A DNA stretch of 64,000 nt, taken from contig OX597814.1 of NCBI GenBank assembly GCA_951406725.2, positions 75,516,001 to 75,580,000 on the forward strand, given 5' to 3'. Positions 36,037 to 40,101 of this stretch are shown one piece after another. The notes below the pieces were generated by a model. That model made no database searches. It worked only from the letters and a program-made list of their open reading frames with translations, and was not told the DNA's origin. Position 1 is the stretch's first letter. Each line of letters opens with the position of its first letter. Both the position numbers and the translations under genes were made by a program. The DNA comes from Octopus vulgaris (lineage: Eukaryota).

Positions 36037-36278
36037 TGGATTTGGTTAAAAAGAGACGATGAGCGATGGCTAGAAGTATATTGAGTTCATCATAACCAGC
36101 TGATCTAGCAAGCGGGGCCTCATATCAGTGAGGGGGGCCGGTGCGCATTGATGCCGTCGAGAGGTAGGCTCCGAAACGGCACGCATTCTCTCCTGATGAC
36201 CCCATACACTTGCTAGCTTCCGATATACGGAGCTTTTAACTGGTAGCACTTGCATGTGCAAGTTGTTTGCAAGATATC
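36037..36278 (+). repeat. 5' copy of the terminal direct repeat (3' end of ORF plus 3' UTR)
   Basis: Matches 39774-40014 except for one extra G and two substitutions (ggctcc/ggcccc, ggcacgc/ggcgcgc). Confidence 0.97.
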
Positions 36279-36307
36279 TAAGACCTTGTGGTAGGTAACC
36301 ACTGACA

Positions 36308-36405
36308 AACCGGAAAGACGGTTAGGCATCTTGGAAAGACAAGAGGACTGCTCGGAAAGACCAGCGGACAATAGGAAAGACTATCGACACCAGGAAAGAC
36401 TGGCG
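36308..36405 (+). other. Array of five GAAAGA-loop hairpins in the retrotransposon 5' leader
   Basis: GGAAAGAC at 36312, 36333, 36354, 36374 and 36393, each closed by a different complementary stem. Confidence 0.8.
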
Positions 36406-36545
36406 GAGGCTACGGACTTACGATCCTCGCCTCTGTATTTTATTGTAACAGACATAACAGGAAAAGACAGCCCCATGATTGACCGAGAGGGGGAGTCGAG
36501 AATCAATCAAACCCAGTCAGCACGGAAACGACCTTTGAAACGAAC

Positions 36546-39500
36546 ATGATTATTCATTCGAACAGCGGACGAAATGCAAACAACTTTGGATGCAAGCTGT
36601 GCTATAGAACCTTTGCAACTGAGAGAGGCTTGAAGATACATCAGGGAAAGACTTGTGAGAAGAGGACAGAGCAGTGTGGATCGTCAGATCGTAAAACACG
36701 TGGCAAATCATCCCCGGACTCAAACCACAGCGGATCGATAAATGCTACAGCACAGAACTCTTCACGTGAAGAAACTACAAGTCATGAAACTGGTGCATCG
36801 GATAATACTCAGAGGAAACCGAGGGTTTTGTGGCCTGCTGCTAATGAGAAAGTGAAATATAAAGAGTTTGAAAACAAGGTTTGTCGGACTCTTTATAAAA
36901 TGACAGGCTCTACAGTGGAAAAACTGGGAAAATTATCAAGCTCAATATACGATGTAGCAAGAGATTTATTTGGAATAAAAGAGAATATCCGACTAGAGAA
37001 AGGAAAGTGTGGACCAAGCAGGAGGATCAGAAAAATGCAGCAGTTGAGGAAGGAAAAGTCCGACTTAAGAAAGAGATGGAGATGTGCTGCACTAGATGAG
37101 AAACCTGGCCTTGCGTTGCTGTATAACGATTTGAAGAGGAAATGTCGTTATGTGCAATGACATATTCGCCGATATGAGCGTCGAAAAGAAAGTAAAAGGA
37201 CTCGAGGGCAGTTTCTGAAGGACCCGTACGGGTTTACTAAGAAGCTGTTCACTGAGCCGAAGAGTGGTACTTTATCGTGCACTAAAGAAGAATTGGATGC
37301 TCATATCAAGGAAACCTACAGCGATCCGCACCGTAATCAGCCGCTGCCATCTCTACATGGGCTAAATCATCTCTCAGGACCTGATATCGAATTCCAGATT
37401 GGGGACATCAGGGAGAGAGAGGTGAATGACTTCGTAAGAAAAGCTAGAGCGAAGAGTGCCCCAGGAGGTGATGGCGTCTCATATAAAGTCTACAAATACT
37501 GCAATCGCCTGCGAAAGAAGCTCTTCGTCCTAATCCGACAACTGTGGCGCGAGGAGACTATAGTAGAGGATTGGTGTAAGGCAGAAGGTATATACCTGCC
37601 GAAAGAGGCCAATGCAAAGACCATAAAACAGTTTAGGCCGATATCCTTATTGAATGTGGAAGGCAAGATCTTTATGGGAATTCTGTCGAGGAGAACAGTG
37701 ACATATTTACAGAGTAACGGATATGTTGATGAATCTGTTCAAAAGGCCGGAATCCCCGGGATCCCTGGATGCGTTGAACACTGTTTTTCGATTTGGAAAG
37801 CGATTCAGGATGCCAAACAGAACAAGAAAAGTCTGAACGTGGTATGGCTCGACCTAGCTAACGCGTATGGTTCAGTGCCACACAAATTACTAATAACAGC
37901 CATGGACCACTTCCACATTCCTGATAAAGTGATCAAAATAATGAGGATGTACTATGAAAGTTTCGAAATGAGGTTTACAACTGGAAGTTTTACAACAAAT
38001 TGGCACCGATTGGAGGTTGGCATTGCTGCTGGCTGTACAATATCTGTCACGTGGTTTATCTTAGTCATGGAGTTGATTTTGAAAGGTGTAGATTTTTCGG
38101 AACAAATCGCCCATGTACAATCGCCTAAGAAAGCCTTCATGGATGACGTGACACTTCTAGCTACAGATAAACAAATCATGCAGAATGCCCTTTTGAGATT
38201 AGACGAACGTGTAAGGTGGTCAAGGATGCGATTTAGAGCAAAAAAGTCGCGTAGTCTGACATTTGTTAAGGGAGTGCAGAAAGAATTTAAATTTCGAATA
38301 TCGGAAGAAAGCATTCCAACAGTCAAGGAAGAGCCTGTCAAGAGCTTGGGACGAGTATACGCTGGAACATTGTCAGATAGAAGTCGTGGGATTGAAATTA
38401 TGAAACAGGCCGAGGCTGGGTTATCAGCGATTGATGTTTCGAAGTTACCAGGTAAATATAAAATTTGGTGCTTGCAGTTCGGCCTGTACCCGCGACTTGC
38501 GTGGCCACTTTTAATATACGAAGTAGCATTGTCACGAGTTGAAAAGATCGAACAAAAATGTAATGTGTTCATTAGAAAGTGGCTAGGTCTACCTCGTATG
38601 TTGAACAGCTCAGCTCTTTATCGTAAAAGAGGTTCGTTGCAGTTACCAATAGCATCAATAGTCGAAATATATAAGTTGGGGAAGATACGGACGGTCATGA
38701 TGCTGAGAGAATCGAAGGATATGGAAATCAGGCGTAACCCACCAGAGGTGAAAACAGCCAGGAAGTGGAAAGCAGAAGCAGAAACTGACAACATCTTGTC
38801 TTCTCTTACACACAGAGATATGGTGGGAGCAACGCAGAACCATCGGAAAGGATTTGGTTTTGGCGCGGATCAGTTCAGACCGTTTGCAAGCATGATGCCG
38901 TGTGAACGCAGATCTGTTGTTAGCAACAGCGTCAAAACAAGAGAAGCAGAGAGAAGAGAGCTTCATTTGATCCGATGTGTTCATCAAGGTCAGATGACGA
39001 GATGGGAAGAACATGTTGTTGAGAGGAAGATAAGTTGGGATGAGATGTGGAAGTGGACAACATCTCGGCTGAGTTTCCTGATTCGTTCATCTTATGATGT
39101 TTTGCCATCACCTACGAATCTAGTAAGATGGAACGTCTTAGAGAATGACGTCTGCAAATGTGGAAAAGTCGGTACACTAAAACATATTCTTTCCAACTGT
39201 TCGTTAGCATTGAACAGGTACACATGGAGGCACAACTTGGTCCTTAAGGTTATCTTCAATGCTATAAAGAATCAAATTCATCTCAACAACACTGAGGAAA
39301 AATCGTTAAAAGTACCATCAAGAGAGTTCATTACCTTCGTGCGACCAGGTCAGCAGATCCGTTTCAAGAAGAAGACCAAGAAACTTCCTGAGAAAAATGA
39401 AAAGTGGAACGACTATTGGGAGGTAACTGCAGATTTACCTGGGTGCCAGGTTTTCTTTCCCATCCCAGTTTCGAAAAAACCAGATATTTTGATGTGGTGT

Positions 39501-39821
39501 GAAAGAAAGAAAGTTTTAAATATAGTCGAGCTAACGGTTCCTCACGAAGATAATATGGACGCCGCTCGAGCTCGAAAATTAAACCGTTATGAAAACCTCC
39601 TCGAGGAATATGAAGACGCAGGCTGGAAAGCGGAACATTTTCCTATCGAAGTCGGATGTAGAGGGTTTGTAGGACACAGCGTGAGACGACTGTTGTTATC
39701 GTTAGGCCTAACTCATCGTAAAGTCAATACCACCATGACTGATATCCAATCTACAGTGGAGAAGGCTAGCCACTGGATTTGGTTAAAAAGAGACGATGAG
39801 CGATGGCTAGAAGTATATTGA
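36546..39821 (+). CDS. Retrotransposon polyprotein (ZnF-RT-CCHC-RLE), ~1090 codons, interrupted by one in-frame TGA at 37158-37160
   Basis: CKLCYRTFATERGLKIHQGKTC zinc finger; RT motifs SAPGGDG, FRPISLLN, WLDLANAYGSV, GIAAGCTIS, FMDD; CKCGKVGTLKHILSNC knuckle; RHN; KPDILMW...VELTVPHE nuclease. ORFs 36546 and 37293 are in the same frame and the interval after the TGA is open (HIRRYERRKES...). Confidence 0.92.
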
Positions 39822-39841
39822 GTTCATCATAACCAGCTGAT

Positions 39842-39952
39842 CTAGCAAGCGGGGCCTCATATCAGTGAGGGGGCCGGTGCGCATTGATGCCGTCGAGAGG
39901 TAGGCCCCGAAACGGCGCGCATTCTCTCCTGATGACCCCATACACTTGCTAG
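39842..39952 (+). ncRNA. Permuted hammerhead-like structured RNA in the 3' UTR (second copy 36105-36216)
   Basis: gccgTC-gagag...ggcccc-GAAA-cggc...ctctc-CTGATGA-cccc, enclosed by ctagcaag/cttgctag. Confidence 0.6.
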
Positions 39953-40101
39953 CTTCCGATATACGGAGCTTTTAACTGGTAGCACTTGCATGTGCAAGTT
40001 GTTTGCAAGATATCACCCATTATTATCATTACATATGCTTGTATGTATGTATAACAACAATATTAGTAATAATAATAATAAATCTAATCGAAAAAAAAAA
40101 A

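Follow-up and report, generated by a model that had tools for sequence, protein, structure and literature searches.

The question raised by this locus is what function can be attributed to a row of hairpins that share one loop, differ in their stems and lie in the 5' leader of a non-LTR retrotransposon of Octopus vulgaris (2.8 Gb genome). The element spans positions 36037-40014 of the analysed stretch of 64,000 nucleotides, termed the window, and its features are collected in Table 1. The ORF encodes an N-terminal C2H2 finger, a basic helical region, a reverse transcriptase (RT), a CCHC knuckle and a restriction-like endonuclease (RLE), the CCHC and PD..(D/E)xK-type endonuclease motifs being read from the translation. 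The HERO clade displays the same single ORF with C2H2 finger, RT, CCHC and RLE and has no fixed target site, and the HERO-like nature of the element, anticipated in the preliminary description, is supported by RT motifs that match, by eye, those of HERO-1_BF and HEROTn as printed in the available part of the PMC7650587 supplement. The 3' flanks of element copies are varied and often TA-rich, as expected from the HERO trait of no fixed target or microsatellite preference. The closest solved folds of a modelled relative (P0002, pLDDT 87) are R2 proteins, and a search of viral contigs revealed no HERO relatives. The window copy is broken, with an in-frame stop at 37158-37160 and a one-base gap near 36488 relative to contigs. 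The genome contains 977 exact 3' ends, and the exact-loop pattern of the array gives 99 matches, which comprise 33 element loci and about 10 others. Many copies carry large internal deletions while keeping the leader and the 3' end (L009, L018-L021, L024, L067), several of them breaking near 36950-37130 and resuming near 39600; these are possibly non-autonomous derivatives. A CCGAGAGGGG block near the ORF start (36470-36492) is kept in differing frames in relatives (REGG versus PRGG), which suggests a constraint at the RNA level.

Table 1. Positions, in window coordinates, of the element features described in the text.
Feature	Position	Strand	Remarks
Upstream partial repeat	36037..36278	+	Element's own 3' end (39774-40014), 98.8% identical
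5' split-core hammerhead fold	36105..36216	+	Predicted cut after GUC 36156-36158
Tail-to-head junction and zone of genomic 3' ends	36272..36287	+	Junction at 36278/36279
H0, small conserved hairpin	36288..36302	+	Directly 5' of the array; 92% of cells paired
Unit 1	36303..36323	+	UGAC linker, spare A, 5-bp stem, GAAAGA loop 36313-36318
Unit 2	36324..36344	+	AGGC linker, 5-bp stem, loop 36334-36339
Unit 3	36345..36365	+	GGAC linker, 5-bp stem, derived mismatch 36362, loop 36355-36360
Unit 4	36366..36384	+	GGAC linker, 4-bp stem, loop 36375-36380
Unit 5	36385..36403	+	CGAC linker, 4-bp stem, loop 36394-36399
Larger hairpin	36404..36436	+	3' of the array
HERO-type ORF	36475..39821	+	
Element 3' end	39774..40014	+	No poly(A) tail
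3' split-core hammerhead fold	39842..39952	+	Predicted cut after GUC 39892-39894

All five hairpins first noticed by inspection were recovered, with GAAAGA loops spaced 21, 21, 20 and 19 nt apart; the single stem mismatch reported for hairpin 3 is present, while the other four stems are fully Watson-Crick (5, 5, 4 and 4 bp). Segment 36308-36405 folds into these five hairpins at -25.6 kcal/mol (z -3.65), and 0 of 200 shuffled sequences were equally stable. The minus strand of the same segment folds equally well (z -3.66), and thus the strand of the array is not given by folding alone. In the 64 kb window GGAAAGAC occurs six times on the plus strand and 0 times on the minus strand, five of the six lying inside the array; the sixth, at 36645 in the finger-coding region, has a weak 4-bp stem and is probably due to chance. 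The constant word of the window array comprises G-GAAAGA-C and a 5' linker x-G-R-C. At the place of the larger hairpin that follows the array, relatives display a hairpin with a GGGYUAGCA-type core (by eye). Rfam 15 covariance models returned 0 matches at E <= 10 over 36037-36520, and neither an HDV-like nor a twister ribozyme could be fitted around the array by eye or by Rfam match.

Two irregularities of the stems were resolved by comparing genomic copies. At position 36362 of hairpin 3, G, which restores the pair, is found in 18 of 31 distinct genomic copies, with C in 11 and A in 2, and G also occupies most of the contig depth of organisms C and D; the mismatch is therefore derived, a change of the youngest subfamily. 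The A-C positions at the base of hairpins 4 and 5 had been explained as CpG decay of former pairs, a proposal that did not survive: 36370 is A in 30/31 copies and never G, 36389 is A in 28/31, and the position concerned pairs in 21% of relatives' units, less than the 39% in shuffles. These positions are an unpaired spare base opposite the next linker.

Conservation of the unit was evaluated in leaders of metagenome relatives (the best 80 of 299 loci). At least 330 nt preceded the finger in 34 regions; these, with the window added and four near-duplicates removed, yielded 31 leaders, 30 from relatives plus the window, in which units were picked by linker and loop only. Same-loop hairpins, which the preliminary description had suggested seeking in other leaders of this kind, are present as at least three units in 21 of the 31 and as any unit in 23. 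No unit was identified in eight, namely L120, L129, L155 and L157, which look 5'-truncated, the outgroup L145, L111 and L115 from a family that lacks the array, and L162. Each unit comprises an x-G-R-C (U-G-R-C) linker followed by a single spare base, a stem of 4-5 bp and a GA(N)NAG(A/U) loop. Stem positions 1-5 of the 75 distinct units are paired in 87, 91, 92, 84 and 65% of cases, compared with 66, 49, 72, 56 and 41% in shuffled units (0 of 10000 as high), and position 6 in 21%. The stems contain 16 G-U against 3 A-C oppositions, which indicates selection on the sense RNA. Loops are GAAAGA (22), GAGAGA (11) or one of 19 other sequences, their GA..AG part being fixed by the search pattern; the loop described as invariant is so within the window's element family, but not across relatives, where 21 loop sequences occur in the 75 units. 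Linkers are predominantly UGAC (50/80) and UGGC (13/80), and a similar unit pattern gave 84 matches in the leaders against a mean of 14.9 in shuffled leaders. In an alignment of 18 leaders 91% of cells are paired and two-sided changes affect 18 of 22 pairs (0 of 500 shuffles), a comparison in which the leaders were chosen for having the array and sequence kinship inflates the shuffle tests; in the leader alignment, H0 displays two-sided change at all four of its pairs. Related leaders thus keep the array with compensatory stem changes, as expected from the original statement that structure is conserved and that this is not a simple tandem repeat. There are four units per leader in most relatives and five in the window's family; on a quick tree built without named HERO references the array is distributed over the main 58-row clade, and outgroup leaders contain 0-1 unit.

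These data bear on whether the repeat acts at the DNA level, be it as a cruciform or as phased sites for transcription factors, or arose neutrally through local duplication. A GAC about every 10 bp and the equal folding of both strands would suit such an origin, but the compensatory changes extend across elements about 40% identical in protein, the G-U excess points to the sense RNA and the module also occurs in phages (below), so that a DNA-level or neutral explanation appears very improbable.

Further hairpin sets were observed in the course of the survey. The outgroup locus L174 carries, at 500-720, a different repeated-loop set with GAGCGACU and CUUGAUG words. Five other GGAAAGAC clusters read in the window genome (L061-L064 and L070) have no DNA similarity to the element, four being simple tandem repeats and one a short unrelated cluster. 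In L536 (1200-1900, minus strand) an array of this type, in decayed form, lies behind another 3'-end sequence, together with an inverted copy of that end; the locus is probably a second HERO-like family in the window genome.

The array is preceded by a partial copy of the element's own 3' end. In 31 of 31 distinct loci that reach leader base 36279 the 3' end of the element lies directly upstream, over ~25 to 1973 nt, a count biased by the fact that 28 of the 31 were found by a query containing the upstream repeat; L065, L067 and L069 were found by the array pattern alone, and the same tail-to-head order is seen in eleven metagenome contigs. Among the 22 loci with both repeats, locus-private variants are common to the 5' and 3' repeat in nine, and no fixed difference between the 5' and 3' repeats was detected in the 22. 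The shared private variants fit one RNA segment copied twice, and could also arise from local gene conversion or unsampled source copies. The 5' ends of several upstream repeats and solo copies cluster near 39640-39660 (39648 three times) with unrelated flanks, and L075 is an insertion with a ~60 bp target-site duplication, no other convincing duplication being found in 26 loci tested save short matches in simple repeats.

The ribozyme proposed upstream of the array corresponds to a hammerhead-like fold with its core in S-G-C order, for which cleavage is predicted. The fold displays the core elements CUGANGA, GAAA and UH with stems I-III in S-G-C order and was identified, always in sense orientation, in 32 of 80 loci (the best 80 of 299 metagenome loci) and in both window copies, with GAAA at 36173 and CUGAUGA at 36193-36199 in the 5' copy. 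A closing helix follows CUGANGA and stem II is supplied from upstream: the upstream partner pairs 5/5 in 28 of the 32 loci, whereas the contiguous partner never reaches 5/5. The block order is that of the type-SGC hammerhead, which differs in that its stem II 5' strand comes after CUGANGA while the element's fold has that strand upstream. In the available text of Eckert et al. (PMC10085705) the stem II strand is assumed to follow CUGANGA, and the SGC type is described as found only outside the genomes of known organisms. Contig depth, a poor measure as it derives from contigs, shows no step at the predicted site, 36158. A tandem family (L114/L115/L111/L168) has a ~6.2 kb unit with the ribozyme 1.2 kb before the finger and internal repeats, and no array.

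The genomic 3' ends of the element are ragged and extend up to 9 nt into leader sequence, the longest stopping at the base of H0. A CTAA continuation is present in 104 of the 977 3' ends (background about 0.4%). Of the 100 of these that were listed and counted by hand, 22 are tandem joints and 78 are other ends; the next leader base, G, follows in 33 of the 78 (background 0.14, p 1.5e-9), A follows in 18 of those 33 (p 0.016) and then C in 7 of the 18 (p 0.005), and one non-tandem end reaches nine leader bases, the foot of H0. Since 3' ends run on into leader sequence, the template extends into the leader too, and the likely start of copying is internal to the RNA, 0-9 nt before H0 and next to the array. 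The distance from the junction to H0 is 9 nt in the window and 4, 6 and 6 nt in L108/L124, L118/L119 and L122, respectively (by eye); the spacing from ribozyme to array and from array to ORF varies between families by tens of bases. The ragged tail was not replicated in the second family, L536, which gave 36 matches against 30 control matches and no signal.

Mainly because the array is tied to this junction and has close analogues in the Penelope-like element PAc and in R2, we tentatively prefer to regard it as a multivalent landing pad that may hold the element's RT protein beside an internal start of copying. The hammerhead folds would cut a read-through transcript to unit length, and its ends would be joined or, alternatively, the RT would jump back onto the same RNA molecule. 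The element protein would bind H0 and the array, nick genomic DNA and start cDNA synthesis just 5' of H0; the RT would then go once round the template and over a variable extra length, generating the upstream partial repeat, and early stops of copying would leave the many short 3' pieces. Support comes from the position of the array, which follows H0 directly, and from H0 itself, which is located 4-9 nt behind the point where copies end. Against it, the youngest subfamily spread with one broken stem. The tandem ribozyme family (L114/L115, L111) has no array and the outgroup only 0-1 unit, so that the array is dispensable in some elements; the start of copying could be marked by H0 alone.

PAc of Anolis, as described in the available portions of PMC11167929, resembles the HERO element in its partial tandem repeats, hammerhead, internal RT start and genomic 'tail', in a protein-binding region at and after the start site and in AT-rich targets. 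Its authors assign the protein-binding motif to the ORF's first 172 nt, a segment that holds and follows the start sites (PMC11167929). PAc differs in possessing a GIY-YIG domain and a telomerase-like RT and in starting in a stem-loop rich in AC inside the ORF, and repeated same-loop hairpins are not described in those portions of the paper. The window element displays the traits of the Penelope-like copying mode, namely partial tandem repeats and 3' tails running on into the unit downstream; its protein is R2-like, without GIY-YIG or telomerase-like RT, and it was therefore not classified as a Penelope-like element. R2 provides the second analogue, in that its protein is gripped by a multi-hairpin 5' RNA (bioRxiv 2023.04.07.536001, available text). 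This 'three-claw' RNA is, like the array, a multi-hairpin cis RNA near the 5' end and binds an RLE-type RT protein, but it is pseudoknotted and non-repetitive and controls second-strand nicking, and R2 primes at the RNA 3' end.

The module is not confined to HERO elements. The commonest HERO unit has matches in 115 viral contigs, while controls with the linker reversed or the loop complemented gave 4 and 1, respectively. Two bases separate UGAC and CCAG in 88 of 92 distinct phage matches, and the free fifth pair is kept in 85/88. When the linker was left free, GRC was recovered in 60 of 70 distinct phage matches (UGAC 51, UGGC 4, AGAC 4), and when the loop was partly free, 58 matches included GAAAGA (34), GAGAGA (8) and one each of GAAAGU, GAAUAGA and GAACAGA. 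Only 4 of 60 loci have the module inside a same-strand ORF. tRNAs are present in 18 of 92 phage loci, with all 29 tRNA calls on the module's strand and four tRNAs starting 7-17 nt after the module; in an Rfam scan, 20 of the 115 phage loci gave tRNA matches only. Within up to 1 kb on each side, 0 of the 115 loci match a HERO protein. A second unit lies within 120 nt in 5 of 92 loci, phage units being otherwise single, and this single use suggests that the module probably has a compact fold of its own. Enrichment in prokaryote genomes is weak, with 51 matches in 596 Gb, the fifth pair kept in 29 of the 51, and 0 tandem pairs. The presence of the module in phages means that the element's protein is not the only possible reader, and makes it less plausible that the module is read by the element's own basic region and nothing else.

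Lambdoid boxB, which consists of a single GNRNA pentaloop hairpin with boxA, shares with the module a short stem and a purine-rich G...A loop and is read by an Arg-rich peptide. Reading of the module by a basic helix, as boxB is read by N, would fit both the phage and the HERO settings and is a guess. The module differs from boxB in its 6-7 nt loops and its conserved 5' UGRC linker; with 51 six-nt and 24 seven-nt loops, the only lengths that the pattern allowed, the GNRNA pentaloop does not describe it.

A conserved host factor could likewise read the module and keep transcription processive or RNA stable over long untranslated stretches, as nut or put sites do; it might be RNA polymerase, a factor of the NusG/Spt5 or S1 type, or a protein with a cold-shock domain. 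Such a reader would account for a module found under the same constraints in many kinds of phages and in animal elements, for the shared strand of module and tRNAs, and for the purine-rich, boxB-like loop. It is nonetheless distinctly unlikely, as the 99 exact-loop matches include no host-gene array (five of the ~10 non-element loci being read), the prokaryote signal is faint and no candidate reader emerged from the analysis. Comparably unlikely is a role as part of an internal ribosome entry element that translates uncapped or circular RNA. The array ends 72 nt before the first ATG (36475) of an RNA predicted to be uncapped, and self-cleaving ribozymes have been linked to cap-independent translation in the available text of PMC13725137, but the array-to-ORF distance varies, other conserved blocks lie nearer the ORF, the phage module also precedes tRNAs, and Shine-Dalgarno-like words 3' of the module occur in 20 of 60 phage loci, about chance level by our own estimate.

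Alternatively, the module might form a knot without the help of protein, its 5' GRC strand docking on stem or loop so as to halt machines that travel 5' to 3', such as XRN1/XRN2 in animals and scanning RNase J or E, or Rho, in bacteria; an array of such knots would shield the uncapped, ribozyme-cut ORF RNA. This would unite both settings, which have linker, spacing and loop spectrum in common, and the strict phage spacing and the location in non-coding RNA, sometimes just ahead of a tRNA, are in its favour. The available texts of bioRxiv 522318 and PMC10520033 describe short two-hairpin Xrn1 blocks (coremin), and that of PMC6938672 describes XRN2 termination hindered by an xrRNA. Coremin RNAs likewise comprise very small hairpins whose loop is conserved, as is an adjoining single strand, but there the loop is YGAD or YGNNAD and a 9-nt spacer lies 3' (same sources), whereas module loops begin with GA, as GA(N)NAGW, and the conserved flank is 5', so that the coremin consensus does not apply. 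Moreover, a 5'-OH ribozyme product is already XRN-resistant (PMC6938672, available text), a block at the array would sacrifice 120 nt upstream that are present in every copy, and the tie to the 3' junction would be left unexplained. We consider a roadblock unlikely, if somewhat less so than a host reader or a translation element, and retain the landing pad as the preferred reading.

A search of the literature revealed no description of the array or module, with subscription journals, Repbase Reports and the supplements of PMC10085705 (26 motifs) lying outside that search. For HERO elements, the available passages of PMC4640811 and PMC7650587 mention no leader array, tail-to-head repeats, ragged tails or ribozyme, and the HERO passages of PMC13708176 mention no array or module. 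The preliminary description recognised the hairpins themselves and overlooked the 5' UGRC linker, the position beside the 3' junction of new copies and the occurrence in phages. The array may be new as a cis RNA signal of a retrotransposon, and the underlying RNA module, being common to phages and animal elements, may be more than that. A broader proposal, doubtful when all its parts are taken together, is that the 20-nt module UGRC-N-stem-GA(N)NAGW would be a cross-domain building block comparable to the K-turn or T-loop, placed singly by phages ahead of tRNAs and leaders, and stacked in 3-5 copies by HERO elements for internally primed, rolling-circle reverse transcription on a ribozyme-made circle, with the same fold or the same universal reader serving bacteria and animals. 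To our knowledge, this mode of reverse transcription has so far been attributed to Penelope-like elements only.

The cis signals of HERO elements are without description in the searchable literature, and R2, which is now used for gene insertion, is closely related to them. The ragged tail, H0 and the array point to internal priming in an RLE element, and together constitute a minimal, testable RNA for where and how the HERO protein starts copying. The phage matches imply that a single small RNA motif is constrained alike in two domains of life, and since the motif is common to phages and HERO elements, an assay in either system would inform the other.
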